Shown here piece after piece: positions 17,301 through 38,509 of a stretch of DNA of 64,000 nt. The notes beneath the pieces were generated by a model. That model saw only the letters and a list, made by a program, of their open reading frames with translations, made no database searches and was not told where the DNA came from. Origin of the DNA: Melittangium boletus DSM 14713 (lineage in GTDB: Bacteria; Myxococcota; Myxococcia; Myxococcales; Myxococcaceae); contig NZ_CP022163.1 of the NCBI RefSeq assembly GCF_002305855.1, forward strand, positions 7,195,765-7,259,764. The letters are read 5' to 3'. Positions within the stretch are counted from its first letter, which is position 1. Every line of letters starts with the position of its first letter. Made by a program: the position numbers and the translations under genes.

Positions 17301-19815
17301 GGGAGTAGAGCGCCCCCAGGCTGCCCAGAAGACATGGGCGCTCGTCTTCCTGGCGCACCAGGGAGGGCAGCACGCGGGCCGGGTACGCGCCGGCGCGGAC
17401 GGCCTGCTCGATGGAGGGCAGGAGGATGGGGTGGGGGCTGAGCTCCAGGAAGACGTCGTGGCCGGAGGTCAGCAACTGCTCCACGGCCTGGAAGAAGAGG
17501 ACGGGCTGGCGCAGGTTGTCCACCCAGTAGGCGGGGCCGAGCGTGGCGCCGTCCAGCACCTGGGCCCGGACGGTCGAGTAGAAGGGCAACTCGCCGGCGC
17601 GGGGGGTGAGGCCCTGGAGGACCTGGAGCAGCTCCTCGCGCAGGGGATCCATCTGGGGGCTGTGGCTGGCGACGTCCACCTTGACGAGGCGGCAGAAGAC
17701 GTCGCGCCGCTGGAGCGAGTCGAGCACCCGCTGGAGGGCGGCGGGGTCTCCGGAGAGCACGGTGGAGCGGGGCCCGTTGGAGACGGCCACGGAGAGCGCG
17801 TCCTCGAAGCCCCGCAGGGCGAGGCGGGCCTCGTCGAGGGACAGCTCGACGAGCGCCATGGCGCCCTGGCCGCTGGTGCGGCGCAGCAGGAGGCTGCGCT
17901 GGCAGATGATGAGGGCGGCGTCCTGGAGCGAGAGGATGCCGGCGACATGGGCGGCGGCCACCTCGCCCATGCTGTGGCCGACGACGGCGTGAGGCCGCAC
18001 GCCCCACGAGCGCCAGAGGGCGGCCAGCGCCACCTGGAGGGCGAAGAGGACGGGTTGGATGACGTCGATGCGCTCGAGCAGGGGCGAGGCGGGCCAGGCG
18101 CGCAGCACCTCGAGCAGACGCCAGGAGACGTGGTGCGCGAAGGCGGCCTCACAGGCCTCGAGCGCTTCCCGGAAGACGGGCTCCTGCTCCAGCAGGCGGC
18201 GGCCCATGCCGGGCCACTGCGAGCCCTGTCCGGGGAACACGAACACCGGCTTGAGCGGCAGCTCCGCGCGCATGCCCGTGGACGTGCCCGGCCGGGCCTC
18301 GCCCCGCAGATGCGCGTCCAGGCGCTCGGCCAGCTCCTCCCGCGAGCGCCCCACCACCGCGAGCCGGTGGGCATGGTGCCCGCGGCGCACGCTCGCGGTG
18401 AAGCACAGCTCCTCCACGCGCTCCGCCCGAGGCTCGCTCAGCAGGGAGCGCCAGGCGCCGGCCAGGGCCTCCAGGGCCTCGGGGGCGTGCGCGGACAGGG
18501 GCAGCAGGAACGCCTCGTCCTCGCGGACGGGACGCGGGGGCGCGGCGGGGCGAGGGGCCTCCTCCAGCACCACGTGGGCGTTGGTCCCGGTGATGCCGAA
18601 CGCGCTCACGCCGGCCAGCGCGGGCTCCGCTCCGGGCCAGGGCGTCAGCGCCTGGGGAATGACGACGGGCAGCTCGTCCCAGGGAATCTGGGGGTTGGGC
18701 GTCTGGAAGTGGAGGCTGGGCGGAATGGCGCGGTGCTGGAGCGCCATCACCACCTTCATCATCCCGGCGAGCCCCGCCGCTCCCTCGGTGTGCCCGATGT
18801 TCGTCTTCACCGAGCCCACGAAACAGGGCCGCTCCCGCTCCCTGTTCTCGCCCAGCACCGACGCGAGCGCCCCGAGTTCGATCGGATCTCCCGCGCGCGT
18901 GCCGGTGCCGTGCGCCTCCACGTAGCCCACGCGCGAGGGCTCCACGCCCGCGGCGCGATAGGCCTCGCGCAGCAGCGCTTGCTGACCCTCGCGGCCTGGC
19001 GTGACGAGGTGCCCGCTGCTCTGCCCGTCGTTGTTGACCGCGCTGCCACGGATGACGGCGCGGATGGGATCTCCCTCCCGGAGCGCCTGGGAGAGCGGCT
19101 TGAGCACCAGCACCGCCACGCCCTCGCTGCGCACGTAGCCATTGGCGCGCGCGTCGCCGAACTTGCTGCGCCCGTCCGGCGACAGCATCGTCGAGCGCGA
19201 GTAGGCCAGGGTGACGTACGGCTCGAGGATCAGATTGCTGGCGCCGACCAGCGCCACCTGGCACTCGCCCTGCCGCAGGCTTTGACAGGCCAGGTGCACC
19301 GCCACCAGGGACGAGGAACAGGCCGTATCCACCGTCAGGCTGGGGCCTCGCACGTCCAGGAAGTAGGACAACCGGCCCGACGCCGCGTACCGCCCGCCGC
19401 CCGTCGTCGCATGGACGTCGAGCTCGGGCAGCGCCTCGTACATGCGCAGCTCGTAGTCGTTCGTCCACATGCCGACGAACACCCCGGTGGCGTGGCGCGG
19501 CAACTTCTCCGGTACCTGCCCGCCGTCCTCCAACGCCTCCCAGGCCACTTCCAGCAGCAGCCGCTGCTGGGGATCCATCAGGTTCGTTTCACGCGGGGAG
19601 AGCTGGAAGAAGCGCGCGTCGAAGCGGTCCACCTGCTCCAGGAAGCCGCCCTTGCGGCTGGCGATCCGCTCTTGCAACCGCTCGGCGTTGAACCGCTCCA
19701 ACGGGGCGTCGCCGATGGCGTCCACTCCGTCGCGGACCAGTTGCCAGAGCTGGCTCGCCGTGTTCACGCCGCCTGGAAAGCGGCACCCCATTCCAATGAT
19801 GGCAATAGGCTCCAT
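14335..19815 (-). CDS. Type I PKS module KS-AT-DH-KR-ACP, first gene of the assembly line, no loading or docking region
   Basis: Begins MEPIAIIGMGCRFPGG, that is KS directly. KS Cys present (TVDTACSSSL). AT motifs GHSMGE and VASH. DH motif LSDHRVHGQGVLP. KR motifs YLLTGGLGGLG and LDD. ACP motif LGFDSLMTLEL. Confidence 0.9.
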
Positions 19816-19944: not shown

Positions 19945-22900
19945 TCAGGACTGGATCAGCCGGTCGATCGTTTCGAGTTCAAGGGCTCTCCATAGACCCA
20001 GGCTCAGCCATTCCTTCGCGAGCAGGGCGGCGCTGTCGTCGCCTGGCTGGATGCTCAGTCGGCCTGCGAGTTCATCCCATTCGCACTCGGAGAGGGATTG
20101 GCTGGAGAGCGCACGGCGGTGCAGGGCGAGAAGACGGTCCGCGGCGGAGGCATCCGCCAACTCCGCGAGCACCGGCTCCACGAGAGAGGGATCATCGACC
20201 CGCGACAGCTTCGCCAACCCTCGCAGCCGGAGTGACAGGAAGGCCTCTCCGTTCGGACCTGGCCATCGATCCCGGTAGCCGAGCTTGGCGCCTTGTGAGG
20301 TGAAACGCGCCAACCACTGCTCGCCGAGGGTCCGTCCATCCCGGGCGAGCGCCCGCAGCATGAGTTGGGTGGAGGTGGATTTCGGCAGCCCGGGGTATTC
20401 GGACAAGGCCCGGAGGGTCCAGGGAGAGAGTTCCGCGCCATGATCGGACACGAGCCGGATCACGAGGTCCGTGATGTTTTCCGGTGTATGGCCAAGCGCC
20501 GCCATGGCCTCGAGATGGTGAGGGGCCTCGTTCAGCCAGCTGTCGTGGTGAAACGAGTGCAGTCGCTCGATGAGGATGTCGATGCGACGTGGGGCGCTCA
20601 TGTCCGCCTGTTCGAGGACCTCGAGTGCCTCCTTGATATCGACGTGGCTGGGGAGCCAGAGCACCGCGTGCTGGAGGACGCTTCGAATCGAATCGTTGGG
20701 TGGCCTCAAGGACAGCAGGGTTCGCGCTCTCCGGAGGGATTCGGAAGGATAGACATGGGCGAACGCGTACACGGCCGCCTCGACCACGGGAATGAGCCGT
20801 TCGTCGCGGCCTCCCAACTCATGAAGCAGGCACGCCGCCTCCACTTGCAGGTCGAACAGCTGCTGCCGGTGGTCCGGGTCGCTCGTGGCGGTGGTGACAT
20901 CGATGCTCAGCGCTCGACGAAGAACCTCGATGCGCTTGCCGGTGAGCCGTCTTCCCGCTTTCGCCAGCCTGTCGAATCGGAGGATGGCGTGAAGTCCCTC
21001 GGGAGGCGTCCGGTGGCGGAGTGCGGTCCGGAGCCAGCGGCGCACGGTCCTTGGCGGAGGGGTGGACGGCTCCTTCCGGGACTTGCACCAGCCCTCGATG
21101 AAGGAGAGCGCGTCTTGCCCGATCCCGTCCTCAACGTGCTCGAAGGCGAGCTCGACGGCGAACAGGATGGCGTCGCGGGTGATAGGGACGCGGTACTGAA
21201 AGAGAAACGTGAACGCCGAGCGCCTCTCGGGGTTCTGCCTCCGGATGATGGCCCATGCATCCGGGAAGCGCTGGAGCCATTGATAGAGAAACAGCTCGTC
21301 GTCATCGAACCTCGTTCGAGCTGGATTCAAACGCGCGATCACCTGCTCCGACAGGCATGGAATCTGGAGGCCGCACCCCTCCGCGAGATGGAGCAGGGCG
21401 TCCAGCTGGCTCCTGTCGATCGTCCGAAGACGGGCCGTGAGTGCCGCTTGGACCGCGTCACGCGTGTCCTCGCGCTTCGCGAGGAACCTCGCGGCGCGGC
21501 GGAAGCGTGCCTCCTCCACGTCATCGAGCCACGCGGTGAGCCGGGCAATGCCCATGCCGGGCCGATAGACACACAGCGCGTGCATCGCCTCGGCATCGAC
21601 CCGTGGTTCCTCCCATTCATGGCGGAAATCATGCAGTGCCTCGTTCCACTCCGGTCCCTGGGCGATGACCCGTGATTCATAGGACGCCCCGAGTAGGAGG
21701 TGACGCTGCGTTCTCTTGTACGGGTGGCCCGCCCGTTCGAGCGCTTCCATCAATACCGCATGGGCTTTCTCCTCCAGGAAGCCACACCGCAGCGCGACGC
21801 GTGCCGCGTCCACCCGGAGCGAGGGGTCCGTGGCCTCGAGCACGCGTGCGATCGAGGGTTGGATCCATTCCCGGGTCTCCTGGGGAAAATGAACGGCGAG
21901 TGCTTCGGCGGCCTCCAGGACGCGTTCCACGGAGCTTCCGTCGAGCGCGAGCCGCCACAGGCGGGCCGCGTCGCTCTCCGCGCCCGCGTGATGGAGGCGT
22001 CCGGCGAGCCATTCCATCTGGCCCTGGGTCAGCTCATGAGGCGACATCACCCGGCAGGCCTCGATGGCGGCGGGGACCGTCTCCTCGTTGTCGAAGCTTC
22101 CCCACAGGAGCAGTCCGTACACCTCCCGCAGGCTCGCTCCCTCTCTCGAATGGAGCGCGAGGCGCTGGCGGACCGCCTCCCGGGCGAAGGACTGCTCTCG
22201 CATCAGGCGGAAGAGCGCGTCCGTTGCCACCTCTCCCACCAGGCCTGGCCGGCCCAGTGCCTCCAGCACGTGCTCCAGGGACGAAGGCTCCGCGGTCACG
22301 AGCCTCGCGAGCGTGGACGACCAACTGATCCGGGTGAATCCGTCCCTCTCTTTCGGCTCCCTGACGGACTCCACGGGAAGTCCTCGCAGGATGGCTTGCA
22401 CGGCCGTCGAGGCGAAGGCCTTCATGCGGCTCACGGGCCAATACATGTAATCCTTCACGTGCGTGTCCGTGGCGCGCGCGGCTTCCTCCGCGTCCACGGC
22501 CACGATCCGTGCATCCACCCGGTGGTGCCGCCAGATCAGCTCGGACGCCGCCTCCCGCCGGATGGTGGACACCGGGTCCTCCAGCAATTCATACAGGACA
22601 GGCACCACGAGGTCCTTGTCCTTCGTGGGCGCCGCGGACACGAGCTTCGCCGCGGCGAGCCGGGTCTCGACGGGGAGCTCCCGGGCCCTCGCGCATTCGA
22701 GCCACCCCTCGAGCGGCTTCCATTCCAGATGGGACATGAGCCCGTGCATGTGCTCGTACACGATGCCGAGCACGTCTGGATTTCCCGAGCGCGCGCAGGA
22801 GCGCAGCGTCGCCAGTGCCTCCTGGGTGAGCTCGGGCTGGCGGCCAGCCGCGAGCCAGGCCCAATGTGCCCGGGTGGCGTCGTCCGGGGAGCGCATGCCT

Positions 22901-25446
22901 CGCCGCAGCGCCGCGTGGAGATGCGTGTCATCCGGGGTGAAACGGCGGAGCAGGCGCGCGGCGCACATCCGCCGTTCGGGCTGCCGGTCCTCCAGCCATC
23001 GGCGGAGGGTGTCGAGGAGGCCGCGCCGCTCCTCTCCCGCTTGCTCCAGCAACCGTTCCAACTCCTGACGGACCCTGGAGTCGGTCTCGGCGGTTCGCTT
23101 CAGGACTTCCTCGAGCATCCCCTCGACCAGGGGGACCACTTCCTGGACGATTCCTCGCGCGTGGGCCCCCAGCGTCGAGTCATCGACCATCCAGTCGAGG
23201 AGGGCGTCACGCACGGGTTTCGAGTCGGCGCGCAGCTTCAACACGGCCTTGGCATCCTGCTCGCGGTGCGTGCCCTTGGAGAGCGTCTGCTTCAGCACCT
23301 CGGCCACGTCGCCGTCCCACATGCCGGCCACCGCGAGCAGCAGCGCCGATGACAGTCGGAGCTCCCGCTGGGCCTCCGGCTCGGGAATGGGCGTGCGGAC
23401 GAGTTCTTGTAATTCCTTTCGCAGGGCCTCTCCCCCGCGGCGTACCCGCTCGCCCACGGCCTCCGGGTGGGGTCTCCCGTAGGCCCTGCCAAAATGGCCC
23501 AGGACCTCGATGACCTCGTGACTCCACTCCCCCGCCGAGGCGAGGCCGAATGCGCCGAGGACGCGCAACTTCGTATCCAGGCGGCGCTCCAGCCAGCCTT
23601 CGCAGAGTTTCCGCGCGGTGGGAACGTCCGCGGCCTCGGGGGCGATGAGGGAGGCGATTCCATCCCGCACGTCGCTCACGCCATGGGGCTCGATGCGGGC
23701 GAAGCGCTCCAGGAGCTCCGGGGACAGCCGTGACGTCGGCCCCTTCGTGGCGAGGCGGCCAAAGACCTCCCAGAGGGGATTGGGCGGGGTCCGCTCGAGC
23801 AGGTCGGCCCAGGTGGACCACACCCGCTCGGTGAGTTCGGGGTCGAGGCGCAGGTCGTACTCGAGGCAGTCGGACAGGTCCCTCAGACCGGGACGAAGGA
23901 ACTGGCCCGCGCCACGCTTGTCCCGATCGAGCAACCCCTGGACGAGCGCGGTGACCTCGCCCGTGGCGCCACACACATGGTCGAGGTGCGCGGCGGCGAA
24001 CTTCAAGACCCACGGGGGAAACCTTGGCTCCGCGAGGATGCGCTCCGCGGCACCGCGCTCTCCATGGCGGACGAGCGCGCGGGCGGCGAGGAACTCGGCG
24101 AAGGTCGAGTGCCAGAAGACGAAGACCCCGCCTTCTTCCTGGATGAGTCCTGTTTCGAGCGCGAGGTGGAGTGCCTTGTCCGCAGACTCCCGGGTCACCG
24201 CGCCGAGCAGGCGGATGAAGAGCGCCCGCACGCCGCCGCCGCGTTGCTCCTGACGGACCAGCGCGAGCGCGACAGCGGACCAGACGTCCATGAGCCCGTC
24301 CGCCTCCGCGCGGGTCAGCCCCAGCGCGGAACGCCACTCCCAGAGGAGCGTGCGGATGAAGTTCTCGAAGACGAAGATCTCGTGCCGGGGGATTCCCTCT
24401 TCGTTCGTGGGCGAGAGCGCCAACAGCGTGAGCAGGAGCGGGTTGCCTCCCAGCCGTTGCAGCCGCTTTCCGGGCTGGAGTTCCCTCAACAGGGCGTTCG
24501 TGCGGTGGCGGGCGCGGGCCTCGCTCCCGGCGTCCTCGTCCTCGCGTCTCTCGAGGAGCCGGTGCAGGCGGGTGACCAGGTTGCGCCGCTGCCGGGGATG
24601 GAGGGGCGCCAGCTGGGTTTGCGCGAGGCGGGGGATGCGCGGGCGGTAGCCGTTGGGCCGCGAGGTCACCAGCAGCCGCACCGTCTCATACCGCTCGAAG
24701 AACGCCGTCAACGCCTCCACGACGGGCCTGCGCTGCTCCTCCGCAACCTCGTCGAGCCCATCGCAGAGCAGGAAGAGCCTTCCGGCCTCCAGCAACTCGC
24801 CGAGCCCGGCGGCGAGCTCGGGCGCCTTCTGGGCGTGGAGCTGGTCACGGATGAGCTGGTCCATGGACAGCCCCCCGGTGGACAGCGCGCCTCCAAGTCT
24901 GCCGAGTGACAGGCGCACGGGAAGCAGCTCACTCAGGGACTGGACCGCCCCCACCGCTTGCGCATCGAACGCATCGTCATCGCACAGCAGTTGACGGGCA
25001 CGCACCGCCGCGGCTCCCTCGGTACAGGCCAGGAACGCCAGCCGGGTGAGCACGGTCTTGCCCGTCCCCGGGTCGCCGATGACGGTGAGCCGGGAGTACT
25101 TGTGGAGCGCCTTGGCGAAGGAGATGGGCTCACCCGCGTGTTCCCACCGGCCGTCCTGGAGCCGCCGGAATTCCTCCTCGAGTTTTCGCCGCTCGTCCTG
25201 GGAGAGGCGCCGGTCGTTCAACCGGTCCATCAAGGTCTCGGCGCTGGGCACCCGCTGCTTGGACTCATCGTGCAGCGAGGAGGCCACCGCGAAGTCGAGC
25301 AGATCGAGCTCCGTCTCGTGGCGGCCTCGCTCAATGCCCGCGAGACGGCTGAGGTCGAGGCGGCGGAGGCTCGGCTCCTTCGCCCACGCTTGTTTGTACT
25401 TCGCCAGCGCTTGGGACACCGCGGGGGACGGACCGGGCAAGGACAT
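19945..25446 (-). CDS. STAND NTPase (NACHT-type NB domain) with about 1350-aa C-terminal HEAT/ARM-like helical repeats, 1833 aa
   Basis: Walker A GDPGTGKT (nt 25064-25087). Walker B LFLLCDGLDEV. Sensor-1-like LLVTSRP. GxP motif GGNPLLLTLLA. Short (about 115 aa) N-terminal helical region. No recognisable nuclease, TIR or HTH. Repeated ...L..LL.D....VR..A...L pattern throughout the C-terminus. Confidence 0.85.
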   Translation of the reverse strand: MSLPGPSPAVSQALAKYKQAWAKEPSLRRLDLSRLAGIERGRHETELDLLDFAVASSLHDESKQRVPSAETLMDRLNDRRLSQDERRKLEEEFRRLQDGRWEHAGEPISFAKALHKYSRLTVIGDPGTGKTVLTRLAFLACTEGAAAVRARQLLCDDDAFDAQAVGAVQSLSELLPVRLSLGRLGGALSTGGLSMDQLIRDQLHAQKAPELAAGLGELLEAGRLFLLCDGLDEVAEEQRRPVVEALTAFFERYETVRLLVTSRPNGYRPRIPRLAQTQLAPLHPRQRRNLVTRLHRLLERREDEDAGSEARARHRTNALLRELQPGKRLQRLGGNPLLLTLLALSPTNEEGIPRHEIFVFENFIRTLLWEWRSALGLTRAEADGLMDVWSAVALALVRQEQRGGGVRALFIRLLGAVTRESADKALHLALETGLIQEEGGVFVFWHSTFAEFLAARALVRHGERGAAERILAEPRFPPWVLKFAAAHLDHVCGATGEVTALVQGLLDRDKRGAGQFLRPGLRDLSDCLEYDLRLDPELTERVWSTWADLLERTPPNPLWEVFGRLATKGPTSRLSPELLERFARIEPHGVSDVRDGIASLIAPEAADVPTARKLCEGWLERRLDTKLRVLGAFGLASAGEWSHEVIEVLGHFGRAYGRPHPEAVGERVRRGGEALRKELQELVRTPIPEPEAQRELRLSSALLLAVAGMWDGDVAEVLKQTLSKGTHREQDAKAVLKLRADSKPVRDALLDWMVDDSTLGAHARGIVQEVVPLVEGMLEEVLKRTAETDSRVRQELERLLEQAGEERRGLLDTLRRWLEDRQPERRMCAARLLRRFTPDDTHLHAALRRGMRSPDDATRAHWAWLAAGRQPELTQEALATLRSCARSGNPDVLGIVYEHMHGLMSHLEWKPLEGWLECARARELPVETRLAAAKLVSAAPTKDKDLVVPVLYELLEDPVSTIRREAASELIWRHHRVDARIVAVDAEEAARATDTHVKDYMYWPVSRMKAFASTAVQAILRGLPVESVREPKERDGFTRISWSSTLARLVTAEPSSLEHVLEALGRPGLVGEVATDALFRLMREQSFAREAVRQRLALHSREGASLREVYGLLLWGSFDNEETVPAAIEACRVMSPHELTQGQMEWLAGRLHHAGAESDAARLWRLALDGSSVERVLEAAEALAVHFPQETREWIQPSIARVLEATDPSLRVDAARVALRCGFLEEKAHAVLMEALERAGHPYKRTQRHLLLGASYESRVIAQGPEWNEALHDFRHEWEEPRVDAEAMHALCVYRPGMGIARLTAWLDDVEEARFRRAARFLAKREDTRDAVQAALTARLRTIDRSQLDALLHLAEGCGLQIPCLSEQVIARLNPARTRFDDDELFLYQWLQRFPDAWAIIRRQNPERRSAFTFLFQYRVPITRDAILFAVELAFEHVEDGIGQDALSFIEGWCKSRKEPSTPPPRTVRRWLRTALRHRTPPEGLHAILRFDRLAKAGRRLTGKRIEVLRRALSIDVTTATSDPDHRQQLFDLQVEAACLLHELGGRDERLIPVVEAAVYAFAHVYPSESLRRARTLLSLRPPNDSIRSVLQHAVLWLPSHVDIKEALEVLEQADMSAPRRIDILIERLHSFHHDSWLNEAPHHLEAMAALGHTPENITDLVIRLVSDHGAELSPWTLRALSEYPGLPKSTSTQLMLRALARDGRTLGEQWLARFTSQGAKLGYRDRWPGPNGEAFLSLRLRGLAKLSRVDDPSLVEPVLAELADASAADRLLALHRRALSSQSLSECEWDELAGRLSIQPGDDSAALLAKEWLSLGLWRALELETIDRLIQS

Positions 25447-25458
25447 CGAGTTCTCGGC

Positions 25459-27546
25459 TCAGGACAGCGTCACGTCATAGTACGGACGTATCTCGCCCGT
25501 TCGCGCGTTGGGCCACTGTGGCTCGGGACCCCAGGCTCCGCCCTGCTTGGGACGGCTTCGGACATGGACCCGGAGCCGGTGGAGTTCCCTCTCCACCTCC
25601 AACAGGTTGTACAGGCGAGGCACCGACTCGGGCCGATCCCGGTAGGGAGCCCCGAAGCTCCCCGCTCCGATGACATGCATGCTCCGCCACGGGTGGGTGG
25701 GGTCGAGGAGGTCCGCCCGAATCTCGTGGACGTGGCCGTGGAGGCAGACGCGGACGTCCGCCTGGCTCAAGCGGCTCGTGAAGGCGTCATCCTTGATCTT
25801 CTCGTTGCCGGTGATGGGGTGATGCCAGACCGCCATCCGGAGGACGTTCGACTCCCGGCCGAGTTCCCTGTCCGCGGCTCGGAGTCCCCGGGACAGGGCA
25901 CCCTCGTGGATGCTGGAGCGTTCCGTGAAGTGCTTGTCGATCTCCCACGCGGAGTTCAGGGCCAGGAATTGAATGCGCGACTCGCGGAAGAAGAACGAGA
26001 GACACTGCTCCTCGGGCGGGAGTGGATAGGCTCGCTGGAAGAGCGGCTGATAGAAGAAGTCGGAGAAGTTCTTGAACCGCTCCGCGTAGACCTGGGCGCT
26101 CCAGTCCAGGTCATGGTTGCCCGGGACGATGATGCATTGCCGGGGCGTCAGCCCGAATTCCTCGAGGAGTTCCGAGACGAACGCGCGGGCCTTCTCGAAC
26201 TCCTGGGGCGAGGCCTTCTGGGTGAGATCTCCCGAGATGACCAGATGGTCCAATCGCTCGACGCCCAGCCCCCGGGGTGGCTTGCCTCGCAGGTCCGCGG
26301 CGAGCGGCTGGAGCAGGTTGTGGGGATCCTGTCCGGCCTCGACGTGCAGGTCGCTCAGATGGAGGATCCGGATGGGAGAGTCCGGACTGGGCGGCTCGGG
26401 ACGGGTGGGGCGGGGGGCCGGTGCCTCGGGAGCGCTCGGGGACACGGAGGACGGTCGCTCCTGGAGCAGCTCGGACCAGGGGATTTCGATGGACTCGCGG
26501 TCGCCGGACAGCGTTCGGGTGTCCGGCTCCAACACGAGCGTCCCGTCCTCCGTCATGAACGTGCTTCGCGGAAAGAGCTCGAGCCGTCCTCCCATGCCGG
26601 TGAGCTGGAGCTGTCCGGCGAGATAGCCCGAGCCCGGCGCGTGCGACGACCTGGGCAGCTCGCTGAAGAGGTCACTCGCGTGCAGCGAGCGGGACCAGGG
26701 ACGCGGCGGAACACCGAGGAGCGAACCGCCCTCGGTGAGCCGGTCGCCACACAGATGCAGGAGCGGGCGTCCCGGGAAGGCGAGCCGTTCTCCCAGCTCG
26801 GTGAGGAGCGCGTCGCGCAGCTTCGACGGGGGATGGTGCGTCAGCAGCAGGAGCGCGTCATGGGGGCGCGCCCAGGCCCGGAGGTCCTGCCCCGTGGCCG
26901 CTTCCACCTGCTCCACGTCGATCTCGTTCATGCCCTCCAAGCCGTCCCGGGCCGAGCTCCGGAAGCTGGAGTTGAGCCCGATGACGCCCACCGTCACGCC
27001 CTCGGAGGCCACGGTGGCGGCGAAGTCTCCGGGAAGCAGCCCCGGGCGGAAGGAGGTGAGCTGGGAGGACGGGTGCATGTGCCGCCAGGTGCTGAACCAG
27101 TCGTTGAAGGCCGCGAACCCCTTCCAGACGGTCCGCTCCACCTGGCCCGGGCTCTCCGCCCGGAAGGCCTTTCGTGCTTCCAGGGCCCGGTAGCGGCTTC
27201 CCAGATCCGGGAGCCGGGGGTTCGGGTCCCGCCGGATGTCATGGTCGCCGGGCACCACGAGCAGGCATGGCTCCGAGCCCAGCTCGCGCAGGAGCGTCCA
27301 CAGGGAGTCCAGCGCGGAGTTCAGCAGCTCGAATTCACGGGGACTGCCCGTCAGCGTGAGGTCGCCCGAGATGAGGACCAGACTCCACGGACCCGCGCGC
27401 GCATGGAGCCCGCGCAGGTCCTGATGGAGGGCTTCCCTGTACTCGGGTTGCAGCAGCCGTGAGCCATGGATGCCCAGGTGAAGATCCGACAGGTGCAGCC
27501 ATCCGAGTCGAGCCACCGTTCCCCCAGCGCGCGCGGAGGCCAGCAT
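25459..27546 (-). CDS. Tandem calcineurin-like metallophosphoesterase (two CpdA/Mre11-type MPP domains), 695 aa
   Basis: Domain 1: LHLSDLHLG, ISGDLTLTG, VPGDHD, LLLTHHPP, with the final GHxH motif replaced by CGDR (degenerate). Domain 2: LHLSDLHV, ISGDLTQKA, VPGNHD, AVWHHP, CLHGHVHE (complete motif set). The stop lies 12 nt before the STAND gene start. Confidence 0.85.
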   Translation of the reverse strand: MLASARAGGTVARLGWLHLSDLHLGIHGSRLLQPEYREALHQDLRGLHARAGPWSLVLISGDLTLTGSPREFELLNSALDSLWTLLRELGSEPCLLVVPGDHDIRRDPNPRLPDLGSRYRALEARKAFRAESPGQVERTVWKGFAAFNDWFSTWRHMHPSSQLTSFRPGLLPGDFAATVASEGVTVGVIGLNSSFRSSARDGLEGMNEIDVEQVEAATGQDLRAWARPHDALLLLTHHPPSKLRDALLTELGERLAFPGRPLLHLCGDRLTEGGSLLGVPPRPWSRSLHASDLFSELPRSSHAPGSGYLAGQLQLTGMGGRLELFPRSTFMTEDGTLVLEPDTRTLSGDRESIEIPWSELLQERPSSVSPSAPEAPAPRPTRPEPPSPDSPIRILHLSDLHVEAGQDPHNLLQPLAADLRGKPPRGLGVERLDHLVISGDLTQKASPQEFEKARAFVSELLEEFGLTPRQCIIVPGNHDLDWSAQVYAERFKNFSDFFYQPLFQRAYPLPPEEQCLSFFFRESRIQFLALNSAWEIDKHFTERSSIHEGALSRGLRAADRELGRESNVLRMAVWHHPITGNEKIKDDAFTSRLSQADVRVCLHGHVHEIRADLLDPTHPWRSMHVIGAGSFGAPYRDRPESVPRLYNLLEVERELHRLRVHVRSRPKQGGAWGPEPQWPNARTGEIRPYYDVTLS

Positions 27547-27577
27547 AGCAGGCGGCGGATTCCTCCCGACGAGGACC

Positions 27578-27947
27578 TCAGACGTTGAGGGACTGGAGCA
27601 GCAGCGAGAGCTGATCCCGGCTGGCGCCCTTGGGCAGGTAGTAGTGCGGCCCGGAGCGGAGCGCGCCGCCCACGTCCTGCACCGCCGCGGCCGTCAACAG
27701 CACCACGCGGGGCGGATCTCCTCGCGGCATCCGCTCCAGGACCTCGAGGCCGTTCATCCCGGGCATGTTCAGATCCAGGAGCATCACGCCGTAGCGCTGC
27801 CGCGCCAGCGAGTCGAGGGCCTCCTGACCATTGGCCGCTTCGATGGCTTCGTAACCGAGCTCTTCCAGGCACAAGCGAAGGAACTCCCGCCAATCTGCGT
27901 CGTCGTCGACGACCAGTACTTTGCGCGCGTCATCCGCGGAAGCCATT
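27578..27947 (-). CDS. Stand-alone CheY-like receiver (REC) domain protein
   Basis: VLVVDDD acidic pocket, phospho-acceptor Asp in MLLDLNMPGMNG, conserved T/S and Lys (LPKG). Start taken at the ATG at 27947. The track's 27955 start is TTG. Lies 31 nt upstream of the tandem MPP gene. Confidence 0.75.
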
Positions 27948-28052: not shown

Positions 28053-28886
28053 CTAGAGCAGGGCGGCGGACAACTGCGAGGCCAGGTACTGCAGCGCGGG
28101 CATGACGTTGGGCGCCGAGCGCTGGCGCGTGGGCGGCAGGTGGGCCTGGCGCCAGACGGGCTCGCCCGTGAGGCGGCCGGCGGCGTGCGAGAAGACGCGG
28201 AATCGGCCCAGCTCGACGGAGCTGCCCGAGTTGTAGATGCGCAGTGAGCGTCCCCGGGGGTGGCCCAGGTCGAACTCGCGCGGCACGTGCCGGTGCCCGT
28301 GCAGGATGAGATCGCACCGGCCCTGGATGCGCTGGACCAGCTCGGCGCCCAGGGCGAGCTCCGAGGCGTGGGGCCAGCCCATTCGCGTCGCCAGCCGCTC
28401 GGGGAAGCTCTCCTCGGGGAGGGGCAGCACGTGGTGGTGCAGGAGGATCGCGGTGAGCGCGCCCAGGGGCGCGGCGCTCAGGGCGCTGTCCACGGCGTCC
28501 AGGACGGCGGGGGTCAGCACGCCGTGGCAGGCGAAGTAGTTGCGGTTGTGGGGACCCGTGGAGTCCACGCACACCAGGTACAGGCCCTCGTGGTGCTCCA
28601 CCCGGACCTTCTGGCCGTTCATCCACCGGCCGCCCGCGTCCTCGCCCGTGCGATCGTGGTTGCCGGGGACGAAGGTGAGCCGTCCGGTGTCGAGCAGCGG
28701 CGCGAAGATTTCCCGGAAGCGCCGGTACTCGCGCTGGCTGCCTTGGTGGGTCAGGTCGCCCGTCACCACCACGTGGTCCACGCGGCCGGAGAGCAGGCTC
28801 TCGACGAGCGCGCGGGCGGTGGTGTCACTGCCGGGGGTCAGGTCCAGGTGCAGGTCCGACAGGTGCGCCAGGGTTCTCAGGTGCAT
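28053..28886 (-). CDS. Metallophosphoesterase (CpdA/PlcP-like), about 278 aa
   Basis: Complete motif set LAHLSDLHLD, VTGDLTHQG, VPGNHD, LLHHHVLP, LHGHRHVP. Start placed at the internal ATG (MHLRTLAHLSDLHL) at 28886 rather than the track's 29177, which would overlap the upstream glycosyltransferase gene. Confidence 0.7.
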   Translation of the reverse strand: MHLRTLAHLSDLHLDLTPGSDTTARALVESLLSGRVDHVVVTGDLTHQGSQREYRRFREIFAPLLDTGRLTFVPGNHDRTGEDAGGRWMNGQKVRVEHHEGLYLVCVDSTGPHNRNYFACHGVLTPAVLDAVDSALSAAPLGALTAILLHHHVLPLPEESFPERLATRMGWPHASELALGAELVQRIQGRCDLILHGHRHVPREFDLGHPRGRSLRIYNSGSSVELGRFRVFSHAAGRLTGEPVWRQAHLPPTRQRSAPNVMPALQYLASQLSAALL

Positions 28887-28972
28887 GGTGCTCGAGTACC
28901 CCGGGGCTGAAACACCCCCGTGGCCCTCGGGTGAAGCTTCCGGGAGGAGCCGGTGACTTCGCGGTGAAGCGC

Positions 28973-30271
28973 TCAGCCCGCGAGCAGTTCCGCCGCGCGC
29001 TGGGGCTCGGGGAGCGCCGGGGACAGGGGCCGCTCCGGAGAGGGCGTCACGAGCCGCGAGCCCGCCATCACGCGCAGCGAATGGCCGCGCCAGTTCACCG
29101 AGCGGACCACCAGCCCGTGGGCCCAGGCCACGAAGAGCAGCGCGTCCTTGAGCAGCACCGCGGGCAGCGTCATCCACGGCGTCTTCTGCCCGGGCCGCAT
29201 GATGCGGAAGACGATCACATCATGGAGTCCCTTCACCACGGCCACCCCGCCCGCCATCGCGAGGGTCGGCGTCGAGGGCGACAGGGCCGCGCTCAGCAGG
29301 GCCCACGGCAGCGGGTTGAGGATGGACTGCGCCAGGTACAGCGGCGTGGGGATGCAGGAGTGGTGGATGATGCTCCAGCGCACGTAGCGCTGGAAGAAGG
29401 TCCGGACGCTCTTCTTCTGGGACACGTTGTAGACGGGCGAGCGGGCCACCACGGCCCGCTGGCCGCTGTAGCGCCTCATCCACTGGCCGATGACGAAGTC
29501 CTCCGCGAGCACGTTGCGGACCGAGTAGAAGCCGTCCAGCGCTTCCACCGCCTCGCGGCGCAGCGCCATGGACTTGCCCACCACGATGTCCTGGCCCGCG
29601 GCCCGCTTGGCGGCGATCTGTCCCGCGGCCGCCGTGGAGCACAGGTACAGGTTGTCCATCAGCGAGCCGAGCGACTGCTCGCCCACGCCGCTCACCGGGT
29701 GGGACACACAGCCCACGGAGGGATCCTCGAAGGCGCGGGAGATCTCCTCCAGGTAGCCGGGCCCCACGCGGGTGTTGGAGTCGCTGATGAGCAGGAGGTC
29801 GTAGCGCGCCGCGGCCGCCAGGGTGATGAGCTGGTTCACCTTGGGGTTGAGGCCGGGCTCGCCGTGCTGCATCTCCAGCTTCATCACATCGGGCCAGCGC
29901 GCCACGGCCGCCAGGGCCACGGGGTAGGCGGGATCGCGCGTGTCCTTCACCCCGAGGATCACCTCATAGGCGGGATGGCCGAGCGTGGCGAAGCACTCGA
30001 GGTTGGCCTCCAGGTCATCGTCCACGCCGCACAGGGGCTTGAGGATGGAGATGCCCGACAGCCGCTCCGTGGGCCCGGTGCCGGTGACGGGCTCCGAGGT
30101 GTCCCAGCGGTGGCGCAACACGCAGAAGAGCTGGACGCAGAGGGCGAGGGTTCCGAGGGCGGCCGCCGAGAGGAGGGCGAGGCTGAGCGCGTGAGCGGTG
30201 AACACGGATGTTCTCCTGGACTGACGGGCGCGGGGAGCGCGCGTCCTGTCCAGGGACGCTACGGACCACAT
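28973..30271 (-). CDS. Family-2 glycosyltransferase (ceramide glucosyltransferase / Pgt-Agt-HpnI-like), membrane
   Basis: N-terminal transmembrane helix. ISILKPLCGVDDDLEANLE and LISDSNTRV (DxD-type GT-A motifs). Hydrophobic C-terminal half. ATG at 30271, 65 nt after phoU. Confidence 0.75.
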   Translation of the reverse strand: MWSVASLDRTRAPRARQSRRTSVFTAHALSLALLSAAALGTLALCVQLFCVLRHRWDTSEPVTGTGPTERLSGISILKPLCGVDDDLEANLECFATLGHPAYEVILGVKDTRDPAYPVALAAVARWPDVMKLEMQHGEPGLNPKVNQLITLAAAARYDLLLISDSNTRVGPGYLEEISRAFEDPSVGCVSHPVSGVGEQSLGSLMDNLYLCSTAAAGQIAAKRAAGQDIVVGKSMALRREAVEALDGFYSVRNVLAEDFVIGQWMRRYSGQRAVVARSPVYNVSQKKSVRTFFQRYVRWSIIHHSCIPTPLYLAQSILNPLPWALLSAALSPSTPTLAMAGGVAVVKGLHDVIVFRIMRPGQKTPWMTLPAVLLKDALLFVAWAHGLVVRSVNWRGHSLRVMAGSRLVTPSPERPLSPALPEPQRAAELLAG

Positions 30272-37825: not shown

Positions 37826-38509
37826 TCAGGGAGGGGTGAGTTTGTAGCCCACGCCGCGCACCGTCTCGATGATGTCGCCCGCGGGGCCGAGCTTCTCGCG
37901 CAGGCGCTTGATGTGCGTGTCCACCGTGCGCGTGTGGATCTCCGCCTGGATGCCCCACACGTCCGAGAGCAGCACCTCGCGCGTCTGCACGCGCTCGGTG
38001 CGCTCCATCAACGTGCGCAGCAGCCGGAACTCCAGCGCGGTCAGGGCCACCTCCTGGCCCCTGGCGCGCACCTGGTGCCGCGTGGTGTCGAGCTGGATGT
38101 CCCCGGCGGACAGCTGCGCGGGCTCTCCCTCCTCCAGGTCCGAGCGCCGCAGCACGGCCTTGACCCGCAGGAGCAGCTCGCGCACGGAGAAGGGCTTCAC
38201 CACGTAGTCATCCGCGCCCAGCTCCAGGCCCTGGATGCGATCGGACTCCTGGCCCTTGGCGCTGACGATGATGACCGGCACCTTGCGCAGCTCGGTGTCG
38301 CTCTTGAACAGGCGCAGCACCTCGCTGCCCGCGAGGTCCGGCAACATCAAATCCAGCAGCAACAGGTCCGGCAGGTTCGCGCGCGCCCGGGCCAGGCCGC
38401 TCGCGCCCGAGCCCACCGCTTCCGCCTCGAACCCCGCGGCCCGCAGGTTGTACTCCACCAGTCCGGCCAGATCCTGCTCGTCCTCGATGATCAGGATGCG
38501 TGCCATCAT
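37826..38509 (-). CDS. phoB: Phosphate regulon response regulator PhoB-like
   Basis: REC (ILIIEDEQD, LLDLMLPDLAG) plus winged-helix (TVRGVGYKL). Tandem ATG ATG start. The second ATG (38506) has better RBS spacing to GGGAGGA. Confidence 0.85.
   Translation of the reverse strand: MMARILIIEDEQDLAGLVEYNLRAAGFEAEAVGSGASGLARARANLPDLLLLDLMLPDLAGSEVLRLFKSDTELRKVPVIIVSAKGQESDRIQGLELGADDYVVKPFSVRELLLRVKAVLRRSDLEEGEPAQLSAGDIQLDTTRHQVRARGQEVALTALEFRLLRTLMERTERVQTREVLLSDVWGIQAEIHTRTVDTHIKRLREKLGPAGDIIETVRGVGYKLTPP

Follow-up and report, generated by a model that had tools for sequence, protein, structure and literature searches.

A tandem metallophosphoesterase with a predicted dead domain and a catalytic-type domain as candidate effector of an adjacent STAND protein in Melittangium boletus

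The locus and its tandem metallophosphoesterase

What might a protein with two metallophosphoesterase (MPE) domains, one of which has lost part of its catalytic motif series, be doing next to a STAND NTPase? This question is raised by a gene at positions 25459..27546 (minus strand) of a 64,000-nucleotide stretch of the Melittangium boletus genome (contig NZ_CP022163.1; G+C content ~70%), referred to here as the window, which is followed on the same strand by a gene for a NACHT-type STAND protein. We consider it reasonably probable that the two genes constitute a conflict or anti-phage module resembling the nucleotide-binding leucine-rich repeat receptors (NLRs), in which the effector is encoded apart from the receptor and the tandem MPE is the output.

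The MPE gene, delimited from the list of open reading frames (ORFs), its translation and two stretches of similarity to Pfam Metallophos, comprises 695 codons from an ATG at 27546. The NCBI annotation starts at GTG 27516 and gives a protein of 685 aa (P0001, 100% identical), and an orthologue, P0002, begins at the equivalent of V11, making the GTG the probable true start; residues are numbered here from the ATG. As P0001 is a singleton cluster at 90% identity, a close copy from another genome is not on record. The GC content at third codon positions is 0.85 in the MPE ORF and 0.84 in the STAND ORF, which supports both as genes, and 0.93 in the polyketide synthase (PKS) genes downstream. A scan of the sequence for sigma-70 promoters and terminators gave background-level matches only.

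The whole MPE protein matches Pfam Metallophos (PF00149) in two stretches (E 2.9e-21, 77.2 bits, cut-off 21.5) and has the beta-alpha-beta-alpha-beta sandwich fold of the MPE superfamily. The first domain (D1, residues 11–365, 26452..27516, minus strand), delimited by Pfam, AlphaFold2 (AF2), a D1-family hidden Markov model (HMM) and alignments, scores 30.2 bits on its own against the same cut-off. It is followed by a Pro/Ser-rich linker (residues 364–391, 26374..26457, minus strand), whose length differs among the three orthologues and whose predicted local distance difference test (pLDDT) values lie below 50 at residues 364–379, and by the second domain (D2, residues 392–695, 25462..26373, minus strand), recognised from its five motifs, its relatives and its NCBIfam matches. 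Homology between D1 and D2 is confined to motifs I–III (44% identity, E 2e-10), and the two are members of different MPE sub-families. No signal peptide was detected in the tandem MPE, motif I being reached from residue 17, in agreement with the original prediction, which had been made from the DNA letters of the window.

The D2 domain and its family

D2 contains the complete series of MPE motifs (LSD399LH401, G439D440, G476NHD479, WH575H576P and H603GH605VH607E), which vary little or not at all among 113 family members and supply all the metal ligands of the five-motif site (D399/H401, D440, N477/H478, H575/H576 and H605/H607). The original prediction had described a tandem phosphoesterase with this series in its second domain (LHLSDLHV, ISGDLTQKA, VPGNHD, WHHP, GHVHE), and each element is in place. 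It had also taken the second catalytic domain to be intact, which holds for the motifs and not for the domain as a whole, from which a 33-residue segment after GNHD is missing. The spacing between GNHD and RFxNF is 10 aa in M. boletus D2 and 38–47 aa in 111 of the 113 relatives, with the short-loop form being present in one other member (P0112). DNA alignment with the orthologous loci L001 and L003 places a clean, in-frame deletion of ~33 codons between two Tyr codons, with its junction at V486-Y487 (26086..26091, minus strand), where AF2 pLDDT is 80–95. In position, the missing segment corresponds to loop 295–316 of Escherichia coli PUA-Cal, in which GNHD occupies residues 291–294. This PUA-Cal loop shifts to the dimer interface upon activation, and its residue W316 stacks on the ligand in the active site of the adjoining subunit (10.64898/2026.01.15.699771). 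The natural loop deletion in M. boletus and its loop-bearing orthologue thus form a ready structure–function pair.

D2 is 40–62% identical to modules at the extreme C-termini of Roc/WD40, Ser/Thr kinase plus PNP, TIR, NACHT (P0030), caspase, CHAT and EAD proteins, a terminal position that Kaur et al. and Kibby et al. describe as the place of the effector in conflict systems. The available parts of these studies list calcineurin-like phosphoesterases among the effectors of such systems, whether STAND-, GTPase- or bNACHT-based (Kaur, Burroughs, Iyer, Aravind 2020/2021; Kibby et al.). The D2 family is large, with more than 1000 clusters recovered by phmmer at E<1e-30. The best NCBIfam match for both D1 and D2 is DS9_1 (NF053862, covering DS-9A/MisA/PUA-Cal) and the second is DS8_antiphage (NF053861), with scores of 140.6 bits (cut-off 420; Cal part alone, profile positions 194–482) and 77.2 bits (cut-off 790), respectively. 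Conversely, the D2-family HMM scored 67.6 bits against E. coli PUA-Cal. From these matches, D2 looks like a widespread conflict-effector MPE belonging to a clade that also holds DS-8 and DS-9A/MisA/PUA-Cal. NCBIfam and HMM proxies were used to assign it to the Calcineurin-CE family, which was reportedly defined by Nicastro and colleagues in 2023 in NAR.

The choice between a CpdA-like and an Mre11/SbcD-like enzyme, in which terms the original prediction had cast the domain, found no support in the family models. NCBIfam CpdA (PRK11148) scored 12.5 bits (E 0.074, cut-off 225) and SpdA was negligible, and SbcD (TIGR00619) scored 37.1 bits (cut-off 77.65) over profile positions 1–86 only, which hold the universal N-terminal motifs. 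In the fold search with the AF2 model, Rv0805 and acid-sphingomyelinase-like enzymes fitted better than Mre11/SbcD; the top Foldseek match was YydB of the YydD-YydB model (9a6c_B), on which a search of the literature brought up nothing of use. In DS-8, an MPE-NACHT protein, mutation of either the predicted catalytic MPE residues or a NACHT ATPase residue abolishes defence, as does mutation of the DS-9A MPE catalytic residues in DS-9 (PMC13092281). Metis MisA converts NAD+ to NMN and AMP (10.1101/2025.11.05.686725), and PUA-Cal turns dNDP into dNMP and assembles into Cal-Cal dimers, hexamers and filaments (10.64898/2026.01.15.699771). Neither cAMP phosphodiesterase nor DNA nuclease activity is reported for DS-9A-type enzymes. 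Given the CpdA and SbcD scores far below cut-off and the DS-9A and DS-8 precedents, a nucleotide or NAD+ pyrophosphatase-type effector is our best-supported guess for D2, a cAMP phosphodiesterase or DNA nuclease being less likely. The E. coli PUA-Cal scored here (549 aa) is encoded ahead of a HAD-IA gene, directly beside Hachiman (hamA and helicase), on the IncHI1B conjugative plasmid NZ_ON934556.1 (L093, 2925–7906), and these genes form a small defence island.

The D1 domain

As read from the translation, D1 keeps D21/H23, G61D62, G100-D-H-D103 and H237H238, and falls short of the five-motif series in having GDRL for GHxH and Asp for Asn. The remnant of motif V, C266-G-D-R269 (26740..26751, minus strand), aligns with the GHxH of active relatives reading HLCGHxHE, both in an alignment of 30 D1-family domains and in a later one of ~85. 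H264 and C266 ('HLC') were considered as a substitute for GHxH and rejected, since in the active relatives His-Leu-Cys lies upstream of the true motif. The two lesions named in the original prediction differ in reach: GHxH is missing in every member of the myxobacterial sub-clade to which D1 belongs, so that loss of motif V is the consistent lesion, whereas the Asn-to-Asp change in motif III (G100-D-H-D103, 27238..27249, minus strand) is private to M. boletus and not a family feature, the orthologues P0002 and P0003 reading GNHD. Members of the GHxH-less clade have drifted in the remaining motifs as well, from DxH to DLQ or DLL (motif I), from GD to GN or GG (motif II), from GNHD to GDHD, GTHD, GPRD or GDMD (motif III) and from HH to HY, YF or HR (motif IV), a pattern that would be expected where two-metal binding is gone.

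To place D1 in its genomic context, the D1 alignment was used to scan one genome per species, giving 80 loci in which MPE domains were typed with purpose-built D1- and D2-family HMMs. The GHxH-less D1 domains are all from Myxococcota, and all 23 informative loci have a D2-type domain downstream on the same strand, whereas GHxH-intact D1 domains occur in many phyla and none of their 44 informative loci has one (Fisher's test, p = 2e-18, a contrast that gauges the persistence of the association and reflects about one clade and one evolutionary event, not 67 independent observations). An AF2 model of the tandem MPE, built from a 24-sequence alignment (overall pLDDT 82, summary confidence only), renders D1 as an MPE-type domain of alternating beta and alpha elements with pLDDT mostly >85. 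With its catalytic residues lost, its fold retained and its co-occurrence with D2 obligate, D1 is a predicted catalytically dead pseudoenzyme tied to its D2 paralogue, as the original prediction of a regulatory pseudo-domain plus one active site had it.

Two further arrangements of MPE domains were observed outside this sub-clade. In a Planctomycetota metagenome-assembled genome (L038, 10001–14745), two D1-family domains of the intact type lie on one strand with 2.6 kb between them, possibly a parallel case of MPE pairing. An independent case of pairing is P0192 (1357 aa), in which a STAND-like ATPase is followed by two D2-type domains in tandem; the first of them reads GHIY.

The STAND protein and the gene pair

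The STAND gene (19945..25446, minus strand) encodes 1833 aa comprising a short pre-NACHT region, a NACHT ATPase and a long series of HEAT-like repeats (~1350 aa), with matches to Pfam NACHT, NPHP3_N and, weakly, HEAT. The Pfam NACHT score of 35 bits (cut-off 26.7) places the protein in the NACHT clade of STAND NTPases, and the NTPase module (residues ~118–480, 24007..25095, minus strand) contains Walker A (G124DPGTGKT), Walker B (LLCDGLDE, 226–233), TSRP (261) and GGNPLLL (333). The L001 orthologue is colinear and 61% identical, with ~70% identity in the NACHT and 49–57% in the repeats, and with Walker A, Walker B and TSRP intact.

All three known tandem MPE genes are followed by this same NACHT-HEAT STAND, with spacers of 12 nt in the window (25447..25458, minus strand, from the MPE stop to the STAND ATG), 40 nt in L001/L002 and 13 nt in L003. 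The tandem MPEs of these loci are 67% (P0002, L001/L002) and 62% (P0003, L003) identical to that of the window. The L003 contig holds just the first 32 codons of the downstream gene, which align with the N-terminus of the window STAND. The genes flanking the pair differ between the window and L001. Scans of metagenome contigs with the tandem-MPE and STAND alignments returned no matches, the automatically selected peptide patterns being overly specific. In the window, both ORFs lie in one reading frame and the MPE stop TGA (25447–25461 region) is the sole stop before a potential MPE-STAND fusion of ~2500 aa. This sharing of frame is probably a coincidence, because the frames differ in L001 and L003.

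The window STAND does not by itself display the tripartite effector–NTPase–repeat architecture of NLR-like, bNACHT or Avs-type immune receptors, since it begins at the pre-NACHT region and its effector slot is empty. Its closest relatives have that slot filled: P0144 (Archangium) is 53% identical from residue 6 of the window STAND onwards and has ~345 aa with a PNP_UDP_1 nucleoside-phosphorylase domain ahead, and P0145 (L088) is 50% identical and has an active-type MPE (GNHD...HHPP...GHTHD) ahead. These fused N-terminal effectors suggest that the window STAND is the same receptor with a vacant slot, its effector being supplied by the upstream gene. An effector role of the tandem MPE for the STAND, which the original prediction had put forward, is therefore well supported at the level of sequence, by the retention of the pair in three of three occurrences with different flanks and, most strongly, by the fused effectors of the closest STANDs. 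Two other proteins, P0030 (NACHT plus D2) and P0136 (D1-type plus NACHT), were examined as possible orthologues and rejected, their NACHTs being distantly or not detectably related; as analogies, they indicate recurrent MPE-NACHT fusion on unrelated NACHT clades.

Origin of the tandem protein

The nearest relatives of both halves of the window protein are giant proteins. In most loci, D1 and D2 occupy the two ends of one ORF of ~1600 aa with the order D1-WD40-Roc GTPase-D2, as in the L010 giant (10001–14794), in which D1 (1–350), a WD40 propeller (409–707), a Roc GTPase (719–885), an unassigned region and D2 (1255–1598) follow one another. The giants match the window protein in their two MPE sub-families and in the order of these. 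They differ from it in carrying ~900 aa (WD40 propeller, Roc GTPase and unassigned region) between D1 and D2 within one polypeptide, whereas in the window this core is absent and a NACHT-HEAT protein is provided in trans. When 1.84 billion cluster representatives were searched exhaustively with phmmer, the short D1-linker-D2 form was confined to one 50%-identity cluster (P0003). With its closest relatives among the giants and a single short-form cluster, the window protein is, as judged by homology, a rare derivative without the WD40-Roc core.

Some giant copies are divided into two genes or interrupted by insertion sequence (IS) elements. The family was also observed in L011–L024, L030, L075 and L007 (5033–9781), with an unassigned region of ~370 aa. 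In L005/L008 (8001–15625), a D1...D2 giant has apparently been split into three ORFs, encoding D1, WD40-Roc and D2, by two IS (DDE transposase) insertions. Gene callers often truncate or split the giants, P0010 and P0041 having been called without D1, and P0185 (1987 aa) has an additional active-type MPE before D1-WD40-Roc-D2.

Genomic setting

The pair lies in a strain-variable region. The metagenome contig L090 aligns over positions 1–10380 with window positions 37952–27567 at 95% identity and then diverges into unrelated genes without an MPE-STAND pair, the homology stopping 21 nt before the MPE ATG. This synteny breakpoint (27566..27567) is the right-hand edge of the region, on the upstream side of the gene, and places the MPE-STAND pair and at least 19.8 kb of PKS genes within the variable region, which with MPE, STAND and PKS genes extends over at least 27.5 kb. 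The PKS genes are of type I (KS-AT-DH-KR-ACP modules) and occupy window positions 3–19815 (minus strand), directly downstream of the STAND gene.

Beyond the breakpoint, L090 and L091 share a block that comprises a two-component system, pstSCAB, phoU, GT21, an MPE and a receiver (REC) gene. The last of these encodes a stand-alone CheY-like receiver of 122 aa (27578–27946, minus strand), located 31 nt upstream of the tandem MPE gene and co-oriented with it, and an identical protein is present on L090/L091 without the cassette. It was considered as a third component of the system and rejected, being outside the synteny breakpoint and absent from L001. The third MPE gene of the window (28053–29177, minus strand) is unrelated, adjoins the GT21 glycosyltransferase gene and phoU, scores ~31–38 bits with the D1 and D2 HMMs and is probably a housekeeping gene; its start is uncertain (374 aa here vs 277 aa as called on L090).

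Proposed function and alternative readings

In the module that we propose, the STAND would sense a trigger through its repeats and then oligomerise. D2, by analogy with its characterised relatives, would most likely carry out metal-dependent hydrolysis of nucleotides such as NAD+ or (d)NDP/(d)NTP at a pyrophosphate or phosphodiester bond, and the resulting collapse of metabolite pools would stop growth or phage replication. D1 would be a built-in partner, joined with D2 in a pseudo-dimer after the manner of the Cal-Cal dimer of active relatives, and would restrain or scaffold D2 until the STAND assembles. What the sequences show are the domain identities and motif states, the strict coupling of dead D1 to D2, the conserved gene pair, the fused effectors of related STANDs and the strain-variable location; we infer physical interaction, trigger, substrate and cellular outcome. 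A tentative and rather doubtful elaboration of this scheme makes D1 a safety-catch subunit that sits at the D2 dimer interface in cis, with NTPase oligomerisation either swapping D1:D2 for a competent D2:D2 or re-posing D1 so that it completes the D2 site. If true, this would amount to pseudoenzyme-gated activation of nucleotide-depleting immune effectors, reused with two unrelated NTPases, the Roc GTPase in the giants and the NACHT in trans in the window.

Several observations weigh against an immune module of this kind. Neither the window nor L001 resembles a defence island, the neighbours being PKS and pst/phoU genes in the former and esterase and Lnb_N genes in the latter, and no PADLOC model matches the STAND. 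The pair is known from three occurrences only, and the association of D1 with D2 counts as about one evolutionary event, as set out above. The DS9_1 and DS8 scores are well under their equivalog cut-offs, so the activities of DS-9A and DS-8 are not simply transferable. The AF2 predicted template modelling score of 0.56 for the tandem MPE means that packing of D1 against D2 cannot be claimed. Given the missing loop, M. boletus D2 may also be hypomorphic, or D1 may compensate for it.

Three alternatives deserve consideration, each of which we regard as unlikely. According to the first, the substrate of D2 is a nucleotide second messenger, cyclic or linear, and by degrading it the MPE tunes or ends signalling under the control of the STAND, without itself arresting growth. 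The conserved MPE-STAND pair includes no cyclase, SMODS/CD-NTase or nucleotide-sensor gene, and the CpdA and SpdA scores are negligible. In relatives, moreover, D2 sits in a terminal slot that is otherwise held by TIR, caspase, PNP and other effectors, and both DS-9A-type enzymes that have been studied biochemically deplete NAD+ or dNTPs, all of which makes a signal-erasing role improbable.

Myxobacteria are rich in STAND and Roc/WD40 proteins, and one can also picture the pair as a developmental or regulatory signalling module serving a cellular programme that is not aimed at invaders. The confinement of the degenerate-D1/D2 architecture to Myxococcota, the position of the locus outside any recognisable defence island and, in M. 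boletus, the presence of a receiver-domain gene 31 nt upstream would all fit. The receiver gene, however, belongs to the conserved pst/phoU block beyond the breakpoint and has no counterpart in L001, the cassette is strain-variable, and P0001 is a singleton at 90% identity. Conflict systems typically exchange effectors on one receptor clade, as PNP and MPE are exchanged on this STAND clade, and the C-terminal repeats diverge faster (49–57% identity) than the NACHT (~70%). A non-immune function is thus not the one that we would expect.

The third possibility is that the M. boletus copy is a decaying, non-functional relic, marked by the loss of 33 codons from D2 and by Asp in place of Asn in D1, of an orthologous system that works elsewhere. 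We doubt this, because both ORFs run their full length, 7.6 kb in all, free of frameshifts and premature stops, the metal ligands of D2 are all intact, and the deletion is in frame with a junction pLDDT of 80–95. In favour of a relic, the deletion is common to just one other of the 113 family members and removes the equivalent of a functionally important PUA-Cal loop; against it, the existence of P0112 means that the short-loop form does occur elsewhere.

An effector nuclease of Mre11/SbcD type, acting on DNA or RNA, is very unlikely, as the SbcD score is under the cut-off of 77.65 and reflects the universal N-terminal motifs only, the protein has no capping domain and no SbcC/Rad50 partner, no SMC-like gene is found among the neighbours, and Rv0805 and acid-sphingomyelinase-like enzymes fit the fold better. 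A housekeeping phosphate-scavenging phosphatase of the Pho regulon, suggested by pstSCAB-phoU and two other MPE genes just upstream, can be set aside almost entirely, since the synteny breakpoint that parts the tandem MPE from the pho block disposes of it, the protein has no signal peptide, close relatives with the same pho block do without the tandem MPE, and the pairing with the STAND is kept elsewhere without pst genes.

Comparison with known systems

To our knowledge, the demonstration that MPE conflict effectors defend against phages is recent (DS-8, DS-9/Metis/PUA-Cal), and control of their off-state is known solely for the PUA-sensor type. Read as a two-gene conflict module, the M. boletus locus points, together with the giants, to a second control solution, in which a dead paralogue always stands beside the live enzyme and is coupled to a GTPase or a STAND ATPase. 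In the split form, effector and receptor can be expressed separately, which opens trans activation by an NLR-like receptor, the role of the pseudo-domain and the nucleotide target to testing.

Among solved structures, the best matches are Rv0805/CpdA, GpdQ, acid sphingomyelinase (ASM) and SMPDL3A/B, with which D2 shares the five-motif dimetal site; identity to these enzymes is 15–22%, and their genomic and domain contexts are unrelated. Inactive MPE-fold subunits are known from the B-subunits of DNA polymerases alpha, delta and epsilon and from Vps29. D1 has no specific kinship to any of them and differs in keeping motifs I and II and in being coupled to a catalytic paralogue. The MPE ShfP of Bacillus subtilis is a secreted protein and offers no relevant parallel.

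A single-protein parallel is DS-8 of E. coli, found with DefensePredictor, in which a calcineurin-like MPE is likewise combined with, and lies N-terminal to, a NACHT ATPase. In the window, by contrast, a 12-nt spacer separates the MPE gene, with its two MPE domains of which one is dead, from the STAND gene; the sensor is HEAT-like, and the NACHT falls in a different clade, closest to PNP- or MPE-fused and FGE-sulfatase-fused NACHT proteins. The DS-9, Metis MisA-MisB and PUA-Cal-HAD systems provide the best-scoring family for both D1 and D2 and share the same catalytic motifs, and the Cal-Cal dimer of PUA-Cal offers a rationale for the D1-D2 pair. They differ in that the window has neither a PUA-like N-terminal sensor nor a neighbouring HAD gene, and control would lie with the STAND instead of with m6dAMP binding as in PUA-Cal.

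The general plan, which combines an NTPase switch with a repeat sensor and an exchangeable effector, is that of the systems of Kaur et al. and the bNACHT proteins of Kibby et al., here in a myxobacterial host. In the available parts of these two works we found no description of the dead-MPE/active-MPE pair, of the D1-WD40-Roc-D2 giants or of a split tandem MPE with a NACHT-HEAT protein. The known element of the locus is thus an NLR-like receptor with a calcineurin-type conflict effector, and the new elements are the provision of that effector in trans and the pairing of a dead with a live MPE.

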